In this document: in pieces, positions 5,944-49,300 of the stretch
How the letters are laid out: the number at the start of each line of letters is the position of its first letter
Position numbering within the stretch: the first letter of the stretch is position 1
IMG/VR virus record: IMGVR_UViG_2778261534_000002
Source of the DNA: a virus
Lineage: Duplodnaviria > Heunggongvirae > Uroviricota > Caudoviricetes
Length of the DNA: 52,137 nucleotides
Reading direction: 5' to 3' (one strand)
Made by a program: the position numbers and the translations under genes
The notes under the pieces: generated by a model
Seen by the model: only the letters and a program-made list of their open reading frames with translations
Databases searched by the model: none
Told to the model about the DNA's origin: nothing

Positions 5944-7626
5944 ATGGCAACGAAAGACAAAAACAAAGGCTTTCTGTCAGCATTGAAGAAAGCCTTCAAC
6001 GGTGGTGATGTTACGCCCGCCGATCCGGTCGTTTTTACGAGCGGGCATAGTGTCGTTGCTCGTTCCGGCCTGTCTGCTTTACGCCCAGGTATACTGGGGA
6101 GCAACAGCGATGGCATGACGAGTGCAGCAGATTCAATTTCTTTATCCTCTGAACTGCCCGGCGAGCGCCTGCAAAAGTACAACATCCTGGAAACGATGGC
6201 TAAAAGCCCGACTATCTCGACGGCTTTAAATATTCACATTGCACATGCGCTTGCGCCTTCAAAAAAAACCGGACAAGCATTCATCCTTTCGCCAAAGGAT
6301 GGTTCCGATGCTGAGGCAGTAAGTAGATGTGAAGAGTTAACTGCTGATTTGGGGGCGATGATTAATGACGGACTTCCTTCATGGGCCATGATTATGGCGA
6401 TCTTTGGGGTGTCTTATGTCCGCCCTTATGCTGAACAGGGCAGGGGGATAACAGGCATTGAGTCCAGTTATTACACTCTGCCACACTTCGTCCAGGAGTT
6501 TTATCGTGGTAGCCAGCTGGTAGGTTTCAGTGGTGATTACATCCTGGATACGCATAGTTTGCGCAGAGTAATAACCGAACCGTGGAATCTGGTTTCCATG
6601 AAAAATCCCTATTGGACGCCGCAGCATAAAGTTATTCCGGTCAGCTACGGCACAAAAGGGTACTCACTGTTAAGTGAGCAGGCTGATAAGCCGTTAATGG
6701 AGACGCAGAATTACGGAACTTCATTCCTTGAATACAGCTATGAACCTTACCTGAATTTATGTGCTGCGCTCGCCGCGCTGAAATCAACGCGAAATAATGC
6801 AGCCAAAATTGACCGCCTGATTGCTCTTACGACGAACACACTGGACCCGGTTAATGCGGCGAACTATACGCGTGGCGTCAGCCAGGCATTGAAGCGACAT
6901 AGTGACCTGGTGGCGCAAAGGTCGATTAATGCCAACGCTATTCCGACGGTGCTTAACCACCTGATACCTGTTATGGGAGACGGGAAGAACGGTATCACTA
7001 TTGATACGCAATCCATACCCGCAGATATCAGTGGTATCGAAGACGTTATGTTTCACCTCCGGCAGCTTGCTGCAAGCCTAGGCATTGACGCAACAATGCT
7101 TGGCTGGGCTGATCAGATGAGTGGTGGACTTGGGGAAGGCGGTTGGCAGCAAACAGCTATCCAGGCCGCATTACGTGCGAACTGGATCAGACAGGCCGCG
7201 CAGCGAACTATTTATCGGCTTCATGATATTCACCTCGCTTATAAATACGGGAAGGTTTACACCGAAAAAAACCGTCCTTATGACGTGCAATTCAACTCAA
7301 TGAACACTGCTATCCAGGAAGAGGAAAACCGGGAACTGGATGCACGCGCCAACTTTGTTGCTGTCATCTCCCAAATTATGGACCAGATCCAGAACAACCC
7401 GAAACTGGCTGGTAGTGACGCGTTTATGCGTTATCTGTTCACCGAGCAGTTGCACATCGACGATGACACTCTCAACACCATGATCAAAGAGTTTAAGGCG
7501 AATGAATCAGAGCAAAACAACGAGCATGGTATGTACGAATCCGCGCCGTTGTCGTCCGGTGACGATCCGGAAAACTGGACGCCAGAACAGTTAATAAACT
7601 TTGCAAAATTTGTGATGAGCAATTAA
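5944..7626 (+). CDS. portal-like head protein (Prt-like)
   Basis: 560 aa; size and position immediately upstream of a head-processing-like gene; call by synteny, not motif. Confidence 0.4.
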   Translation: MATKDKNKGFLSALKKAFNGGDVTPADPVVFTSGHSVVARSGLSALRPGILGSNSDGMTSAADSISLSSELPGERLQKYNILETMAKSPTISTALNIHIAHALAPSKKTGQAFILSPKDGSDAEAVSRCEELTADLGAMINDGLPSWAMIMAIFGVSYVRPYAEQGRGITGIESSYYTLPHFVQEFYRGSQLVGFSGDYILDTHSLRRVITEPWNLVSMKNPYWTPQHKVIPVSYGTKGYSLLSEQADKPLMETQNYGTSFLEYSYEPYLNLCAALAALKSTRNNAAKIDRLIALTTNTLDPVNAANYTRGVSQALKRHSDLVAQRSINANAIPTVLNHLIPVMGDGKNGITIDTQSIPADISGIEDVMFHLRQLAASLGIDATMLGWADQMSGGLGEGGWQQTAIQAALRANWIRQAAQRTIYRLHDIHLAYKYGKVYTEKNRPYDVQFNSMNTAIQEEENRELDARANFVAVISQIMDQIQNNPKLAGSDAFMRYLFTEQLHIDDDTLNTMIKEFKANESEQNNEHGMYESAPLSSGDDPENWTPEQLINFAKFVMSN

Positions 7627-7639
7627 CCGGAGGGAAATA

Positions 7640-8638
7640 ATGCAATCACTGAATACTGTTACGGATCGCTTCTCCCTGGTAGAGAAAATCCGCAAACACA
7701 CACCGCAGAACAACCGAAATTATGTCATTCAGTCGGTACGAGACACATTCAACTCGCCAGAAACAAAAGAGCGTATCGCGCTGGGTGAGATGTATGGTTA
7801 TTACGGTCATGGTCGCCGGGCGATGCACTATAACAAAACGAAAAGCCTGAACTTGCCGGAAGTCTCTGTTGTGATGGTAGATGGGAAGCCTGTTGTATTG
7901 GAGAACGTGCCGTCAAACAGGACTATCGACATTTCGATTGACGACAACGGCATTGTTACGCATACGCAGGAAATACTGGATACAGACACCGGGCGTATTG
8001 TTCAGGGCATGATTAATTCTGGTGCTGGTGGTTGGTCGTGGGCTACATCTGGTCCAGATTCATCGGTATCCCTGGTAAAGTCTTTCCACGGCTTTGATTA
8101 CGTAACTGTGCCTAACTATATCAGCCTCGACAAGAAAAGCCTGATGCTTGAATCAGCAGAAGAGCGCGATGCGGCTATTCATGCAGCACTTATCGAACAA
8201 GGTTTTACCGATAACGCTGCTACGGATCTGGTTCACCACTTTTCAGCAATGAAAAATCAGCAAGCCATGCTCGAATCTGCACATCGTGAAGCCCTGGAAT
8301 CAGAATTGATGCTCCTTGAAGTGGAAAACATACAGCTTCGAGATAAGCTGCGCGCTCAAACAGCGATGATGGAAAGCCAGGGGGAAAATGCAAAGCAATG
8401 CCGCCGGATTTTGCGTGACGCTATCCAGGAAATGCCTGTTTTTATCAGCGCAGAACAGCGCCGGGCGCTCTGCCGTATGCAGTCTGAAGATGATGCCCGC
8501 ATAGTGGCTGCGATGCTTGAATCTCTTGGGGCAAATGCTACTTATGGCTTACCGGTATCAGGCAAGAAAGAACCAGAGTTATCACCGAAGGAGAACAAAA
8601 ACACCACCCCGTTACTCTTCGTTTCTAGAAGGGGGTAA
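7640..8638 (+). CDS. head morphogenesis/processing protein (Pro-like)
   Basis: 332 aa, tightly follows portal-like gene; C-terminal coiled coil. Confidence 0.35.
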   Translation: MQSLNTVTDRFSLVEKIRKHTPQNNRNYVIQSVRDTFNSPETKERIALGEMYGYYGHGRRAMHYNKTKSLNLPEVSVVMVDGKPVVLENVPSNRTIDISIDDNGIVTHTQEILDTDTGRIVQGMINSGAGGWSWATSGPDSSVSLVKSFHGFDYVTVPNYISLDKKSLMLESAEERDAAIHAALIEQGFTDNAATDLVHHFSAMKNQQAMLESAHREALESELMLLEVENIQLRDKLRAQTAMMESQGENAKQCRRILRDAIQEMPVFISAEQRRALCRMQSEDDARIVAAMLESLGANATYGLPVSGKKEPELSPKENKNTTPLLFVSRRG

Positions 8639-9898: not shown

Positions 9899-10084
9899 CT
9901 GCATCATCGACTGAAGTCATCCATTGCTGAAATTTTTAGTTGATCTTCCATGTTTTCAGGCTTATATTCATGCCGTCGTAGCAAATTCTGCGACCGGGTT
10001 TGACAGCCTGAATACTTACGCGGACAACCGCACATTTCCGATATTGCGGTATTTTTGTGTCCGTAAAACCACGTTACGCCCGAA

Positions 10085-10180
10085 TTATGGTGGGGCGTGA
10101 TGGGGAGGCTTCGGCCTGCTGGTTTCGTAAGTGCCAGTCTGTCAACCCTGTCACGTCCTGCCACCTGTTTGACAGCGGGT
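10085..10180 (+). ncRNA. c4-like antisense RNA candidate
   Basis: structured leader upstream of icd-like gene; TCGTAAGT (10125-10132) is complementary to ACTTACGA at the icd RBS (10197-10204); GGC-ttcg-GCC tetraloop hairpin; boundaries approximate. Confidence 0.3.
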
Positions 10181-19322: not shown

Positions 19323-19583
19323 ATGCGAAAGAATCGTAGGTTTACGGTCGAAGACCTAAAGGAATATTCCATATCGAAGGGGTATATCCTTGAGTTCCAC
19401 CGATACAAGAAGGTTTTTACGCTGCGAAAAGCAGAAAACCCTGCGAACTGGAGCTGGATATACTTTCCTCACACCGATGATAAGTTGGTAGAACTTGTTG
19501 ATGATTTAACCTATGAAGGTTGGTTGATCGCAATCGACAAGACAATCAAAGAATTATCCGAACAGGATAAAATAACCCTTTAA
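19323..19583 (+). CDS. hypothetical protein
   Basis: 86-aa ORF, 2 nt after preceding stop; followed by hairpin. Confidence 0.4.
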   Translation: MRKNRRFTVEDLKEYSISKGYILEFHRYKKVFTLRKAENPANWSWIYFPHTDDKLVELVDDLTYEGWLIAIDKTIKELSEQDKITL

Positions 19584-20822: not shown

Positions 20823-22046
20823 GTGACGGGAACAGCAATGAGTCAACACACTGATACTTCTAATCTGGAAATTATCTCGACAGCAATTGAAACGCTGCGC
20901 ACACAAATCGCTCTTATACAGAAACGGAATCCGGGTGATGACCTGTCAAAGCGACTGCACGAGAGTGTCATTGCCACTACAGATAACCTGGTGGCGGAAA
21001 TCAACAAGCTGCTTGATGATGGGGCAGTTGATTACAATAAGCTGGTGGATCAGTTTGAGGAATACCAACAAGCCGTTAATGATGGCTTGATCCGTTTTTC
21101 ACAAGTCACAGGCGTATCAGCGACAGTTGAAAGCCTGGGTGATGCAGTTAATCAATTTGCCGCGAATATGCGTAATGAGATCGGCAATCTGGAAGCGCGT
21201 CTTGAACAGGCAAATACACTGCGTAAATCTGCCGAAGCCGATTTGAACCGTTACAAAAAAGACTATCCGCCCAGCCTGACAAAGCGGCTGGATGTTGCGG
21301 AGAAGGATAACCGCGCGCTGAAAAGAGAGCGCCGGGAACTAAAAGAGCGTTTAACCAAGCTCAATCAGCAATGCATTGATTATCAAGGCGAAGGCGTCAC
21401 ACTGCGTAAAAAGTTGGCTACAGCGCAGAGCATTATCGAAACATTAAAGCGAGAGTGCTCACAGCTTGGTCACGATCTGAACCGTGCTTGTGGCATGGGA
21501 CAAAGACCAGAGACATTTCCACTCATGTATGATGGAAGGGATGCCATTGCCTACATCCATGAGTATCCGCACGGCCTGGTTGCGGAAACAGGGCAGCGTG
21601 GCGAAGCACTGTTGACGGCTAATTACCATCAACAAATCAGAACCAATCGCCTGTTAACGATGGATGTGATCCCATCGGTATGGGGAACGCCGCTTTACTA
21701 TCGCCTGCCGGGCTTCGAAAAGGACTGGAATACCGACATAGACGAATGTCTCGCAGATAAAATTATGGCGTACCTGGAGACGGATTTTCCGCGCTTATAT
21801 CGCCGGATTATGGACTCTAAGGATGCGCCAATCGATGAATTAAAAATGCGTCCGGAGACGCTGGAGGCAATCAAGCAGACGGAGTTTGATACTGTATTCA
21901 GTGTGGCCTGCATTCCAAGCTGTTTCCATGAAAGCATCCCGTTCATGCAAGGAGATCGTCGTCAGGAAATCATTGACGCTTGCCGGGTATGGGCGAACGA
22001 ATGGGATAAGAAGAATGGGGGTGTAGAAGATCTTTATGGGAAATAA
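20823..22046 (+). CDS. hypothetical protein, N-terminal coiled coil
   Basis: 407-aa ORF (probable start ATG 20838); coiled-coil N-half, Cys/His-containing C-half; no recognizable catalytic motif. Confidence 0.5.
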   Translation: MTGTAMSQHTDTSNLEIISTAIETLRTQIALIQKRNPGDDLSKRLHESVIATTDNLVAEINKLLDDGAVDYNKLVDQFEEYQQAVNDGLIRFSQVTGVSATVESLGDAVNQFAANMRNEIGNLEARLEQANTLRKSAEADLNRYKKDYPPSLTKRLDVAEKDNRALKRERRELKERLTKLNQQCIDYQGEGVTLRKKLATAQSIIETLKRECSQLGHDLNRACGMGQRPETFPLMYDGRDAIAYIHEYPHGLVAETGQRGEALLTANYHQQIRTNRLLTMDVIPSVWGTPLYYRLPGFEKDWNTDIDECLADKIMAYLETDFPRLYRRIMDSKDAPIDELKMRPETLEAIKQTEFDTVFSVACIPSCFHESIPFMQGDRRQEIIDACRVWANEWDKKNGGVEDLYGK

Positions 22047-22047
22047 T

Positions 22048-22062
22048 GTGTTAGAAATCTAA
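22048..22062. promoter_or_regulatory. operator-like 15-bp motif
   Basis: GTGTTAGAAATCTAA. Confidence 0.35.
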
Positions 22063-22203
22063 AATCACAATTCGAATGTATTGATTGTGGAGATAACTTA
22101 ACATAGAATTTTCCTTGCTGGTGGGCAGTACCCACGTTTCGCTTGCTGGGCTTGATAGTCACTTATTGGTTATTGTTCGCCCACCAGCATTTAACAAATT
22201 AAA

Positions 22204-22218
22204 GTGTTAGAAAAGGAT
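22204..22218. promoter_or_regulatory. operator-like 15-bp motif
   Basis: GTGTTAGAAAAGGAT. Confidence 0.35.
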
Positions 22219-22699
22219 GGTAATGCAAGAGCACGCTTTGGCACCGTGCAGGCCAAAGTTCAGCAGGTTTAGTGCGGAAAGTGGTTTCAGAGAGAGCACT
22301 TTGCGGAGTAAACGACAATACATGTTGAGCCACGGAAGGTCTTTTTAAGGTGTTCATTGATGATGGTCCGGCAGAGAGTAACGGTACATGCTGCATCTAA
22401 TCATCAATGCACATCTTCAACATTAAGGAGGCATAGGGATTTTTGTGGCGGTTACCTTTTGCCCTGAGTCTCCTTAATGTTGCGGTAATGCACCTATGCG
22501 GATGTGGCCTTGCATTGTGTCTTGAAAGAATGGGGTAAGGCCGGGGATATCCCCAGGGGGAGGCACCCCCGCTGCAACGAACAGCCACAGACGGCAGTCG
22601 AGTGATGGAAACGTGTAAAGACTTTAAACCTCGTTACGGCTGGCGTGGCAAACGCGACAACCGAGACAGAGCGGTGACGGGCGGAGAGAGTGCCGCATC

Positions 22700-22820
22700 A
22701 AGAAAGAAGCCGACTTGTGATCCCTTTCTGCGGGCATTTGAAAGTGAATCCAGCTCAGGCAGTCGGCTTCTTTCTTGTGTGAGATGTAGCGTATTTGCCC
22801 ATCTTCGGGTGGGCTTTTTT
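22700..22820 (+). ncRNA. candidate structured small RNA
   Basis: perfect 16-bp inverted repeat AAGAAAGAAGCCGACT (22700-22715) / AGTCGGCTTCTTTCTT (22761-22776) around a 45-nt loop, then hairpin GCCCA-N8-TGGGC plus TTTTTT (22797-22820). Confidence 0.3.
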
Positions 22821-23280
22821 AGGGTTTTCGTCATGGTTAGCGACTTTGCGGCGGTTTAGAAACCGACCATTAAAGTAAATGCAAACGATGATCTGATGAT
22901 GGTAGCGGCCTAAGAAGCCAGACGCCACGGGGTATGAGTCGTCCCCCGTCAAAAAATCGACCGCAGAGTGTCCCCGTCTGTGTATTAGGGAACGGGGAGG
23001 CATAACAGGCAAGGGCGCTGGTGTGATTAACCAGATGAATGAGAAGGGTCAGGTCTTTCTGGTCAGCGCCCTTACCTGTTACGTCCCTCCCGCGTAACAG
23101 CCATTGATTAATGGCTTTCTGGGATAACATCCTACTACGGGTATATCCCGTCATGCTGAAGGCGCTAATCACGCTGGAAGCCAGGGTTGTGCATCCCCTG
23201 TTACCGAATTGCAGCCAGGGCGCGGTGCGCCGAAAAGCATACGGAGGTGGAAGCCCTCGCCGGAGACGTACCCGGCAAGT

Positions 23281-23357
23281 GATGGTGTAGCTCAGTAGGA
23301 TAGAGCAGCAGCCTTCTAAGCTGTCGGTCGGTGGTTCGAATCCACCCACCATCGCCA
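23281..23357 (+). tRNA. tRNA-Arg (anticodon UCU)
   Basis: 77 nt; 7-bp acceptor stem GATGGTG/CACCATC, anticodon loop CTTCTAA, T-loop GGTTCGAATCC, 3' CCA. Confidence 0.9.
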
Positions 23358-23362
23358 ATTTA

Positions 23363-23449
23363 GGGGAGTTAGTCCGTAGGGGTAGCGGGGTAGACTGTAA
23401 ATCTACTGTCATTGCGACTCGGGTGGTTCGACTCCATCACTCCCCACCA
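23363..23449 (+). tRNA. tRNA-Tyr (anticodon GUA), long variable arm
   Basis: 87 nt; acceptor GGGGAGT/ACTCCCC, anticodon arm GTAGA-CTGTAAA-TCTAC, variable-arm stem GTC/GAC, 3' CCA; D-arm atypical. Confidence 0.7.
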
Positions 23450-23453
23450 AATT

Positions 23454-23529
23454 GCCGGTTTAGCTCAGTTGGTAGAGCGCCTGCCTTGTAAGCAGGATGT
23501 CAGCGGTTCGAGTCCGTTAACCGGCACCA
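23454..23529 (+). tRNA. tRNA-Thr (anticodon UGU)
   Basis: 76 nt; TAGCTCAGTTGGTAGAGC D-arm, anticodon loop CTTGTAA, T-loop GGTTCGAGTCC, 3' CCA. Confidence 0.9.
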
Positions 23530-23580
23530 ACACAACAGGTAAGGGCATTCTCCCTTATGGGGCTTGGCTTAAATGCATCG

Positions 23581-23609
23581 AGTGCTCTTACCGTTGTGAT
23601 GAAGTGCAG
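23581..23609. repeat. 30-nt spacer repeat, copy 1
   Basis: AGTGCTCTTACCGTTGTGATGAAGTGCAG; related copies at 23811 and 24112. Confidence 0.5.
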
Positions 23610-23724
23610 CTCTTTGAAGCAACCAGAAGATAAGCATCTGGCTTCACAACATAAACCGCAGGAACGACCAATAAACGGTAGTCCGTATGGAGAACACCCC
23701 GTTGAGGAAGAGGCCTGGCCGGAA

Positions 23725-23931: not shown

Positions 23932-24018
23932 GGAGAGTAGGGAGCATGGTGCTCAAGCGGTCTTGAAAACCGTCCCATTGCGCAAGCGATGATGGTTCGA
24001 TTCCATTACTCTCCGCCA
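23932..24018 (+). tRNA. tRNA-Ser (anticodon UGA), long variable arm
   Basis: 87 nt; acceptor GGAGAGT/ACTCTCC, anticodon loop CTTGAAA, T-loop GGTTCGATTCC, 3' CCA. Confidence 0.85.
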
Positions 24019-25480: not shown

Positions 25481-25556
25481 GGCCCTTTAGCTCAGTGGTT
25501 AGAGCTGGCGACTCATAATCGCACGGTCACCGGTTCAAGTCCGGTAGGGGCCACCA
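25481..25556 (+). tRNA. tRNA-Ile2 (anticodon CAU, lysidine type) or tRNA-Met
   Basis: 76 nt; very close to E. coli ileX-type sequence as recalled (GGCCC.TTAGCTCAGTGGTTAGAGC...CTCATAA...GGTTCAAGTCC...GGGGCCACCA). Confidence 0.85.
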
Positions 25557-30375: not shown

Positions 30376-31413
30376 TTACCAGAGCTTCGCGGCGTACTGC
30401 GTTTGGGGGAATGTGTATCCGTAACGTTCTTCGATTGCTTTGCCGTATTTTTTACGAGCTTCATTCAGTTTAATGCCGGTCAGGTCGTCTCCAGAGGCCA
30501 TCATTACGTCTAACAATTCCAGATCCATTTTATCCAGCCTTGCCATTGCTTCACGTGATGTACGTATCTTACGCTCAATGATATGGCGAATAGCCGGATC
30601 GGCATCCTCCAGCATCTTAGCGGATTTCTGCTTAAGGCTTTCATTGCGAATATCGATGTTCCTTAAGATGTACGACTTCGCAACGTAGCTTGGCTGGTGT
30701 TTTTCCAGGTCACGAACACGATATAAGTTAAAATCGCCGAGAAGGCTGCAAGGTACCGATTCGACGCCAGAATAAATTGTAATGCTCCGGCGTTCACCAA
30801 CATTATTGACAACGGGGATCGTTGTCTTCGGTAGTCTTGCGAAAACCAATGCGCCATGTGCGCCAACTCTAAAGCGAGAAAGGGCATTGCTGCCTTCGAT
30901 GTTTGTTGTCAGCACAACATCTGTATATGCCTCTTTACGCGCCCGGTAGATCTCGCCTTCAGGCTCAGCTTCAAAGAAGCGCTGTTCTTCTTCAAGAGCA
31001 CCTACAATTTGAGAAAAAACCCTATTTTTCAGGCTTTTCTTTATGATTTTGTCGTATTTTTTGAGCAATTGTTCACGTGTAAATGTACGTGTTGTTGTAG
31101 CGCTTTGCACAACAACATGCGTGCTTTGATTGGTGTCCTCAATGATGAATGGGATCGGAGAATATACAGACTCAACAATGTTCGACGCTTTGCCGTCGGC
31201 ATCGCGGCACATGTCAACGAAGGCTTTCCATTCAGCAAGACATTTTTCAGCTTCTTCTAATATGTTTTGGTCATGCGTTAATGCAACATGGCGGAATTCC
31301 TCGCCAGCATAACTGGTATCATGGAAAACAGAGTTTGCGACCACCAGCTCTTTCCACCGTTCAGCGGTTTGCAGGAACCGTTTGTACTCTTTCTCGATCG
31401 ACTTCTTACTCAT
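30376..31413 (-). CDS. c1-locus protein, candidate immunity regulator of unknown family
   Basis: 345 aa at the position of c1/coi in P1 (between pacB and the lox-equivalent site); no similarity to P1 C1 as I recall it; operator-like motif 15-29 nt upstream of its start. Confidence 0.5.
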   Translation of the reverse strand: MSKKSIEKEYKRFLQTAERWKELVVANSVFHDTSYAGEEFRHVALTHDQNILEEAEKCLAEWKAFVDMCRDADGKASNIVESVYSPIPFIIEDTNQSTHVVVQSATTTRTFTREQLLKKYDKIIKKSLKNRVFSQIVGALEEEQRFFEAEPEGEIYRARKEAYTDVVLTTNIEGSNALSRFRVGAHGALVFARLPKTTIPVVNNVGERRSITIYSGVESVPCSLLGDFNLYRVRDLEKHQPSYVAKSYILRNIDIRNESLKQKSAKMLEDADPAIRHIIERKIRTSREAMARLDKMDLELLDVMMASGDDLTGIKLNEARKKYGKAIEERYGYTFPQTQYAAKLW

Positions 31414-42881: not shown

Positions 42882-42922
42882 AATGTATACCGACTCTGTT
42901 TTGTTCCGAGCGGTAAAATAAT

Positions 42923-42953
42923 ATGTTAGAAAACTAAAATCAATGTTCTAACA
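42923..42953. promoter_or_regulatory. operator-like motif pair
   Basis: ATGTTAGAAAACTAA (42923-42937) plus partial inverted copy TGTTCTAACA (42944-42953). Confidence 0.45.
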
Positions 42954-42978
42954 AATTTTGAGTGCGTAAATGATTTGA

Positions 42979-49025: not shown

Positions 49026-49131
49026 AAATACAGACTGTTGCGCCCTGGCATTATCGTGGGGTATATTTCTACGGCACCTTAGAAAAACGGGTGCCGGGAT
49101 TGGAACCCCGGATAATGTCAAAGGCGACACA

Positions 49132-49153
49132 GACGCCGAAAGCGTCTTTTTTT
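49132..49153 (+). terminator. rho-independent terminator
   Basis: GACGC-cgaaa-GCGTC followed by TTTTTTT. Confidence 0.65.
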
Positions 49154-49169
49154 GTGTCATGCCATCGCA

Positions 49170-49300
49170 CAGCCATACGTAGCGTTTAGCTCAGAGATCA
49201 ATGGTAGTGCTGGCTGGGCTGCCGAAAGGCAGGCCGGTTCCCTTTGACGCCGGTAGTTCCAACCCAGTCAGTGCTACCGCCATTGAGATTGGAACCTCAC
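49170..49300 (+). ncRNA. c4-like antisense RNA candidate (module 2)
   Basis: structured leader upstream of second icd-like gene; CCTTTGAC (49232-49239) is complementary to GTCAAAGG at the icd RBS (49311-49318); CTGCC-gaaa-GGCAG hairpin; boundaries approximate. Confidence 0.3.

Follow-up and report, generated by a model that had tools for sequence, protein, structure and literature searches.

Predicted regulatory features between two operator-like sites of a D6-like plasmid prophage: an early promoter and a conserved helix with Chi octamers in its arms

In the viral DNA analysed here (IMG/VR record IMGVR_UViG_2778261534_000002, Caudoviricetes; the window, by which the whole stretch of 52,137 nucleotides is meant), two copies of a short operator-like motif flank a piece of DNA whose segments can be paired in two mutually exclusive ways. 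An initial annotation, made from the letters of the sequence, took this arrangement to resemble an attenuator or switch with no coding sequence nearby. Whether the flanked element is an RNA switch, a terminator, a pair of recombination signals or the start of a transcription unit is the question raised by this locus.

Genomic setting of the element

Sequence comparison places the window among the D6-like plasmid prophages (phage-plasmids) of the P1 family. Over 21000-23500, the identity is 97.7% with Escherichia phage D6 and 100% with several plasmids of ~92 kb from E. coli and Salmonella, and 110 plasmid records contain this segment. In the list of open reading frames, the gene that precedes the element is a pmgS homologue of 407 aa (20823-22046, plus strand), which the D6 annotation describes as 'PmgS-like head morphogenesis, similar to P1 gene pmgS'. 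Its product is 20% identical to P1 PmgS, 74-75% identical to the PmgS of the related lineage L063 and 46-47% identical to that of the lineage L078. The stop of this gene, at 22046, lies 2 nt upstream of the motif copy at 22048. The description of the element as having no coding sequence nearby is therefore accurate on the downstream side, where no conserved ORF was found for ~1.2 kb 3' of the pmgS homologue, but not on the upstream side.

The predicted transcript body (22223-22796, plus strand) is an ORF-free, strongly structured leader, with a fold z-score of -3.85 and no Rfam match. Identity across 22400-22840 amounts to 96-100% in all clades and to 98.2% in L063. Two ORFs in this part were considered as small proteins and rejected, one of 43 aa at 22217, whose ATG is not conserved, and one of 85 aa at 22602, which is broken in relatives by a change from TGT to TGA. 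The terminator scan found a strong intrinsic terminator, GCCCATCTTCGGGTGGGC followed by T6 (22797-22821, plus strand), which precedes the tRNA cluster and, according to the P1 sequence and annotation, is common to the end of the P1 'dicF-like region'. Similarity to P1 restarts at ~22794, with this terminator and then the tRNAs. Five tRNA genes are found on the plus strand (23281-23529, 23932-24018 and 25481-25556), and they are followed by tciA/tciB, two small ORFs and lpa.

In the P1 annotation, the counterparts of these features (the dicF-like terminator and the tRNAs) correspond to the ban operon, with the promoters P1ban and P2ban and the bivalent C1 operator Op72ab. On the basis of this sequence comparison, 22046-22222 is the positional counterpart of the C1-controlled promoter of the P1 ban operon. 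Both regions have the same plan, in which a sigma-70 promoter under repressor control (predicted, in the case of the window) stands ahead of the dicF-like terminator, the tRNAs and tciA/tciB. The two regions differ in that the unit of the window follows pmgS and not dmt, and its putative operators, at ~-60 and +88, flank the promoter instead of overlapping it. Furthermore, the D6 annotation contains no ban gene in this stretch. In the public D6 record, operators, promoters and RNA features are all missing from the region.

A dispersed motif and the predicted promoter between two of its copies

The motif GTGTTAGAAA occurs exactly at 22048-22057 and 22204-22213, where it had initially been placed, and both copies are part of a 17-nt direct repeat (22041-22057 and 22197-22213) that is 88% identical, with its members 156 bp apart. 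When up to one mismatch is allowed, the window has 14 occurrences of the motif, where 3.35 would be expected, and none of 100 shuffles reached 14. Alignment of the contexts of these copies indicated that GTGTTAGAAA is the core of an asymmetric consensus of ~20 bp, RTGTTAGAAAAYTAATTT. The operator matrix was trained on nine other sites, with both of the flanking sites under test left out. It detected 13 sites of more than 10 bits in the 52-kb window, whereas shuffled sequence gave ~1 in 20 kb.

The sites are placed ahead of immunity and early genes. One of them is found 11-31 nt upstream of the start of c1, the gene annotated as the prophage repressor, and another lies 76-96 nt before lpa, with P1 Olpa located 71-87 nt before the same gene. 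Sites ~90-110 nt before the c4 a1/b1 targets have a position similar to that of P1 Oc4. Further sites precede repL and pmgS, and P1 carries Op86a/b before pmgR-pmgS. The operons preceded by the motif (c1, lpa, repL, c4-icd-ant and pmgS) are those with C1 operators in P1. Since the motif is enriched and placed in the manner of the P1 C1 operators, RTGTTAGAAAAYTAATTT is taken here as the putative operator of the D6-type prophage repressor. The term 'operator-like', as first applied to the two flanking copies, is thus upheld at the level of sequence by their membership in this dispersed family.

It has been described that P1 contains 22 dispersed, asymmetric 17-bp C1 operators with the consensus ATTGCTCTAATAAATTT (PMC8546580). 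The motif of the window shares with them its asymmetry, its length (~17-20 bp) and its dispersal before c1, lpa, c4 and repL. In addition, overlapping inverted sites at 42921/42936 and an inverted pair at the -35 hexamer of clade C resemble the bivalent operators of P1. However, RTGTTAGAAAAYTAATTT does not match ATTGCTCTAATAAATTT, from which it follows that the specificity differs and that, strictly speaking, the motif is no P1 C1 operator; only the A+T-rich right ends of the two are similar. The predicted repressor (30376-31413, minus strand; D6 orf1, 345 aa) has no tblastn hit to P1 C1, belongs to no Pfam family and falls into PHROG 1678, a group with no assigned function. Homology of this protein to P1 C1 was consequently rejected, and the name 'C1' derives from the D6 annotation together with the position of the gene and the motif.

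A late (Lpa-dependent) promoter was also rejected as an explanation of the motif, because the P1 late promoters have the form AAGTGACTT-N4-TAnnnT, which is unlike it. The presence of the motif upstream of lpa and c1 themselves further contradicts that reading. A full-text literature search for the motif returned nothing relevant, although an earlier description is possible in the P1 and D6 genome papers (Lobocka 2004; Gilcrease & Casjens 2018).

Predicted operator site 1 (O1; 22046-22066, plus strand) is a full-strength copy of RTGTTAGAAAAYTAATTT, with 26.6 bits, and is situated 15-35 bp upstream of the -35 hexamer of the promoter described below. Its core is unchanged in all relatives. Predicted operator site 2 (O2; 22202-22222, plus strand), at ~+88 from the predicted transcription start, reaches 6.7 bits in the window, where the left core is intact and the right half is degraded. 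The core of O2 is also kept in all relatives, in which the site scores 14.9 bits (D6), 17.3 bits (clade B), 20.0 bits (clade C), 16.5 bits (L063) and 13.4 bits (L078).

Between the two sites, the promoter scan predicted a sigma-70 promoter, TTGATT-17 nt-TAGAAT (22081-22109, plus strand), with 9/12 hexamer matches, which is the sole sigma-70-like site in the 1.8 kb from 21900 to 23700. The initial account of the DNA between the motifs had passed over this promoter, as well as the Chi identity of the hairpin arms discussed in the next section. For comparison, 19 distinct variants of the module were gathered from plasmids, IMG/VR and metagenomes. The metagenome scan contributed seven genuine loci, most of its matches being chance hits to A+T-rich patterns, and the scan of a genome-contig collection gave chance matches to such A+T-rich patterns. 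None of the 19 variants departs from the -35 hexamer or the 17-nt spacer, and within the -10 hexamer the sole variable base is that of position 3 (TAGAAT, TAAAAT or TACAAT), the least critical one. This conservation reaches L063 (PmgS 74-75%) and the syntenic lineages L078/L079 (PmgS 46-47%), a pattern that, on comparative grounds, argues well for a functional promoter. Judged by where the -10 hexamer lies, transcription would start at 22116/22117, with the first base of the 5' arm of the hairpin.

The arrangement of operators and promoter varies among relatives. In the window, O1 is clear of the promoter hexamers and O2 is weak, which makes the geometry of the proposed repression less evident here. 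In clade C, an extra inverted operator of 25.8 bits abuts the -35 hexamer, and in L063 a possible second promoter, CTAACA-17-TATAAT, has O2 as its spacer. DNA looping between O1 and O2 was considered and found to be unsupported, given that the two are 156 bp apart in clades A and B but 150 bp apart in clade C, so that the helical phasing is not conserved. At the other motif sites, a strict promoter scan detected too few promoters to generalise the geometry.

A conserved helix with Chi octamers in its arms

Downstream of the promoter lies an inverted repeat of 11 nt that is 100% complementary, with 52 nt between its arms. The 3' arm, GCCCACCAGCA, is located at 22179-22189 (plus strand), in agreement with the initial annotation. 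Its perfect partner, TGCTGGTGGGC, exists as claimed, but the 5' arm that it forms occupies 22116-22126 (plus strand) and not 22126-22136, a displacement of 10. The 52-nt interior of the hairpin (22127-22178, plus strand) is variable and comprises the local partner ACCCAC at 22130-22135 and the second copy, TTGCTGGGC, which had been placed at about 22145 and is found at 22143-22151. This copy falls within a 13-nt direct repeat (22109-22121 and 22137-22149).

Folded as RNA, 22114-22200 reaches -31.4 kcal/mol (z = -3.66, with lineage z-scores from -2.4 to -5.1), and the pair probability of the closing helix is ~1.0. The closing helix is present in 19/19 variants, in which it comprises 10-14 bp and begins 5-8 nt after the -10 hexamer; in the D6-like lineages, the distance from this hexamer to the 5' arm is constant. 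In a 15-sequence alignment, a helix of 13 pairs is paired in 92.8% of the cells, compared with 27-65% for slid controls, and its covariation score is higher than that of 499 out of 500 shuffles. Compensatory changes are found in clade C, where C-G is replaced by G-C, and G-C by A-U or G-U. Most of the helix is invariant, and the covariation therefore rests on few independent events.

In L078, a distant relative, the arms differ and form a 14-bp helix (UUGUCGGUGCUGGU / AUUAGCACCGACAA) with z = -5.1 that lacks the 3' Chi and is located, as in the window, between the promoter and O2. The interior of the hairpin has diverged in L063 and is rearranged in L078, and its internal pairings are not conserved. 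Conservation in relatives is found for the promoter and the closing helix (19 variants), but not for the inner elements (L063 and L078).

The cores of both arms are exact Chi octamers (GCTGGTGG), at 22117-22124 on the plus strand and at 22181-22188 on the minus strand. The window contains 32 Chi sites against 1.56 expected, an enrichment of ~20-fold, and a pair of opposed Chi sites no more than 64 bp apart is expected somewhere in the window in 44% of random placements. At this density, the 8-bp core of the repeat is unremarkable by itself. As with the Chi sites of E. coli and P1, exact octamers are present on both strands, and their enrichment agrees with what has been reported for P1, in which Chi is the most frequent octamer, with 50 sites, and growth needs RecA and RecBCD (PMC12315714). 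The pair in the window differs from the Chi sites of E. coli and P1 in being inverted and doubling as an RNA helix, and in that its 3' copy is dispensable in several variants.

The substitutions in the 16 positions of the Chi cores are A>G in L010 and L301, C>T in L028 and L381, and two C>T changes in L078. All six are located in the 3' arm, where each converts a Watson-Crick pair into G·U on the plus-strand RNA, and none is located in the 5' arm, in which any transition would break a pair. If transitions were random over both arms, the probability that all of them fell in the 3' arm would be about (1/2)^6 = 0.016. The natural variants of the 3' arm (CCACCGGC, CCACCAGT, CCGCCAGC and CTACCAGC) have lost Chi and kept G·U pairs. 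In total, the 5' Chi is unchanged in 19/19 variants and the 3' Chi has been lost in five lineages. The 3' Chi is dispensable, while the invariance of the 5' Chi could be explained by RNA pairing or by Chi function. At the ends of the helix, single-sided substitutions produce A·C about as frequently as G·U and give no support to a strand asymmetry, for which the core substitutions alone are informative. Taken together, several lines of sequence variation indicate that the pairing is selected and the helix conserved as a structure, on the plus-strand RNA, although the evidence is limited.

A similar use of Chi octamers is seen in P1. Close pairs in which Chi is followed by anti-Chi number 4 in P1 against 0.35 expected (~10-fold, P ~2×10^-4), and one of them constitutes the intrinsic terminator right after pmgS, aaTGCTGGTGG-agtgcgc-CCACCAGCA-TTTTTTT. 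Among 28 distinct P1-like sequences, all but two have TGCTGGTGG, 7/8 nt, CCACCAGCA and 6-8 T directly after pmgS; in one P1-like sequence of this survey, the 5' octamer carries one substitution. The hairpin of the window has the same position directly after pmgS and the same TGCTGGTGG / CCACCAGCA Chi/anti-Chi arms. Since the arm sequence and the genomic position are the same, a common origin is a reasonable inference, and the hairpin is probably related to the P1 terminator. The differences are also considerable: the loop of 7-8 nt and the run of 6-8 T of P1 correspond here to a loop of 52 nt and a lost U-tract, and the stop codon is separated from the 5' arm by a promoter and an operator, both predicted.

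Alternative explanations and proposed working

In the RNA switch or attenuator initially suggested, the 3' arm would pair in turn with the 5' arm and with the second TTGCTGGGC copy, governed by the flanking sites. This proposal is now extremely improbable, and 22046-22222 is a regulatory region of an ordinary kind and no RNA switch. Four segments with two possible pairings can be drawn in the window, as in trp-type leader attenuators and riboswitches. The alternative pairing is base-pair compatible in 95.8% of the alignment cells, and a local hairpin (22121-22125 with 22131-22135) is predicted, although only as a co-transcriptional intermediate. However, the energies of the two states are not comparable, the best fold being 14.5 kcal/mol worse without the 5' arm than with it (-20.2 vs -34.7 kcal/mol). 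The pairing of the 3' arm with TTGCTGGGC has zero covariation, and it is broken in clade C at column 40/68, which is where the main helix has been compensated. Moreover, the inner elements that a switch would employ are not conserved in L063 and L078. No conserved U-tract follows the 3' arm, the tails being TTTAAC, AAATAA, TCAAAC, CTTCTA and ATTAAA. No leader peptide was found, the ATG at 22217 not being conserved, and Rfam had no hit in 22040-22800 at gathering thresholds and, with E relaxed to 5, no credible one.

Tails that are not U-rich make an attenuator and a surviving pmgS terminator both unlikely. If the hairpin were still the pmgR-pmgS intrinsic terminator, as in P1, it would hence also be a promoter-proximal attenuator. 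The TGCTGGTGG/CCACCAGCA terminators with a T-run after pmgS in nearly all of the 28 P1-like sequences favour this explanation, and these arm sequences are retained in the window, where a residual ATTT follows the 3' arm. We nonetheless consider it very unlikely, as the loop is branched and measures 52-61 nt (52 nt in the window) against the 3-8 nt of the scan criterion, and the terminator scan did not call the element. The tail is UUUAAC here, and a U-run is missing from clades B and C as well as from L063 and L078. Furthermore, termination 75 nt past a conserved promoter would cut off the downstream RNA, which is itself highly conserved. The arms could also act only as DNA, as two opposed Chi sites that modulate RecBCD from either side, with the RNA hairpin being incidental. 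Such an explanation is in keeping with the abundance of Chi in the window and the frequency of opposed pairs expected by chance, and with the excess of close pairs in P1 and the dependence of its growth on RecBCD. It would also suit L063, in which the loop has fully diverged and both octamers are intact, and the constancy of the 5' Chi, which extends even to L078 with its different 3' arm. It is unlikely, since each of the five lineages without the 3' Chi still pairs via G·U, and in every lineage the positions beside the octamers are paired, with differing bases and, in two cases, through compensatory double changes. The 14-bp helix of L078, which contains a single Chi, and the fixed position of the helix beside the predicted transcription start also speak against it.

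The explanation that we favour, and regard as probable, is that 22046-22222 is the regulatory head of an immunity-controlled early ncRNA/tRNA unit in a D6-like plasmid prophage of the P1 family. The motif family, the conservation of the promoter, the conservation of the helix, the Chi identity of the arms and the conserved, ORF-free region downstream with its strong terminator are direct observations, from which the following working is proposed. In the prophage, the repressor (30376-31413) would bind O1 and, more weakly, O2, and the promoter would be held low. In relatives, repression may be reinforced by the second, inverted operator at -35 and possibly by the second promoter (L063). Upon derepression, transcription would start at ~22116/22117 and produce an ORF-free RNA of ~0.7 kb that ends at 22797-22821, with read-through past this terminator into the tRNA and tciAB genes.

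According to the folding model, nucleotides 1-74 of this RNA would form a multibranch hairpin, with the 11-bp helix 22116-22126 / 22179-22189 closing it. In E. coli, 5'-terminal stem-loops protect mRNAs from free-5'-end-dependent decay. By analogy, the 5'-terminal helix may sequester the 5' end and thereby stabilise or insulate the transcript. As in such stem-loops, of which the ompA 5' UTR hairpin is an example, the stable helix of the window would begin 0-2 nt from the 5' end predicted here, and its position and pairing are conserved; in contrast to them, it closes a branched loop of 52 nt and is not a simple hairpin. The DNA of the arms would double as Chi in both orientations, and may thus additionally supply recognition by RecBCD in both directions.

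These results offer a working map for a kind of plasmid prophage, the D6 type, that is common among E. coli and Salmonella. The map covers the operator consensus, the layout of the regulon, one early promoter and the point where a conserved ncRNA would begin. They also indicate that, in Chi-rich genomes, perfect inverted repeats may be Chi sites and should be tested against the Chi background before they are read as switches. The recurrence of Chi/anti-Chi hairpins at P1 operon boundaries is a small, testable observation on Chi placement. A broader idea, tentative and rather unlikely at present, is that P1-family phages build functional RNA helices from Chi/anti-Chi pairs, as a selected dual-use design. 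If this were true, one short sequence would serve both transcription or RNA stability and, as Chi, RecBCD travelling either way, and the examples would be the pmgS terminator of P1 and the 5' helix of a repressor-controlled, highly conserved ncRNA of ~0.7 kb in D6-like elements.

A conserved ORF-free stretch downstream of the promoter

The stretch at 22400-22840, which lacks ORFs and shows strong structure, is 96-100% identical across all clades. In the diverged relative L063, its identity to the window reaches 98.2%, though the PmgS protein of L063 is only 74% identical, and the promoter and hairpin region of the same relative is, in contrast, strongly diverged. The distant relative L078 has only three islands in common with this stretch, namely ATGTTGCGGTAATGC (22477-22491), CAGGGGGAGGCACCCCCGCYGCAAC (22554-22578) and the terminator. 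No Rfam family was matched for 22400-22840, which may represent a conserved non-coding RNA or, alternatively, a module that has been exchanged recently.

The clade C relatives L004 and L005 carry around 110 additional nucleotides at the equivalent of window position ~22780-22797, matching the body of the "dicF-like region" of P1, of which the window and phage D6 have retained the terminator alone. The stretch also contains a hairpin at 22418-22482 (arms 22418-22438 and 22462-22482). In one relative, L028 (IMGVR_UViG_3300015157_000028), the 39 nucleotides flanked by CAACATTAAGGAG and CTCCTTAATGTTG are the exact reverse complement of those in the window, which shows that the top of this hairpin was turned over by a very small inversion between 13-bp inverted repeats.

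Chi pairs in P1 and the tRNA cluster

Closely spaced pairs of a Chi octamer followed by an anti-Chi octamer are enriched in P1 (L003 and L017), with four pairs found against 0.35 expected (P ~2×10^-4), located at 19386/19441, 77742/77756, 83737/83752 and 85871/85928. One of the four is the intrinsic terminator following pmgS; another lies across the end of pmgV.

Rfam found four tRNAs of the cluster on the plus strand of the window (the minus strand of D6), and ARAGORN recovered the same four and, likewise on that strand, one more at 23932-24018, the remaining genes lying at 23281-23529 and 25481-25556. The identities assigned by ARAGORN are Arg(tct), Tyr(gta), Thr(tgt), Ser(tga) and Met/Ile(cat). 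In the D6 record (7145-7850), the tRNA genes are placed on the other strand, under names partly unlike those of ARAGORN, and around window positions 23359-23424 the window departs from D6 in sequence.

Immunity loci, repressor and operators

Two operator motifs, inverted and overlapping, are found at 42921-42956 (28.6 and 18.1 bits), in an arrangement that resembles the bivalent operator of P1; when mapped to D6, this pair is placed between the ppp-like and pdcB-like genes. The window holds two separate immI-like loci, one at 9962-10168 (C4 antisense RNA with a1/b1 targets) and another at 49074-49284 (isrK and C4), with operator motifs nearby, and the D6 annotation lists two icd-ant modules.

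The prophage repressor annotated as "C1-like" (345 aa; 30376-31413, minus strand) gave no tblastn match in P1 and contains no Pfam domain, and it belongs to PHROG 1678, a PHROG without assigned function. The repressor of D6-type immunity is therefore unrelated in sequence to P1 C1.

Finally, the divergent P1-like contigs L233 and L234 both carry a P1-type operator, ATTGCTCTAATAAATATT, shortly 3' of pmgS, and in L234 a non-Chi terminator hairpin (GCTGATGGG/CCCATCGGC) lies downstream of that gene. Judging from these operator sequences, a repressor-controlled promoter 3' of pmgS would not be confined to D6-like elements.
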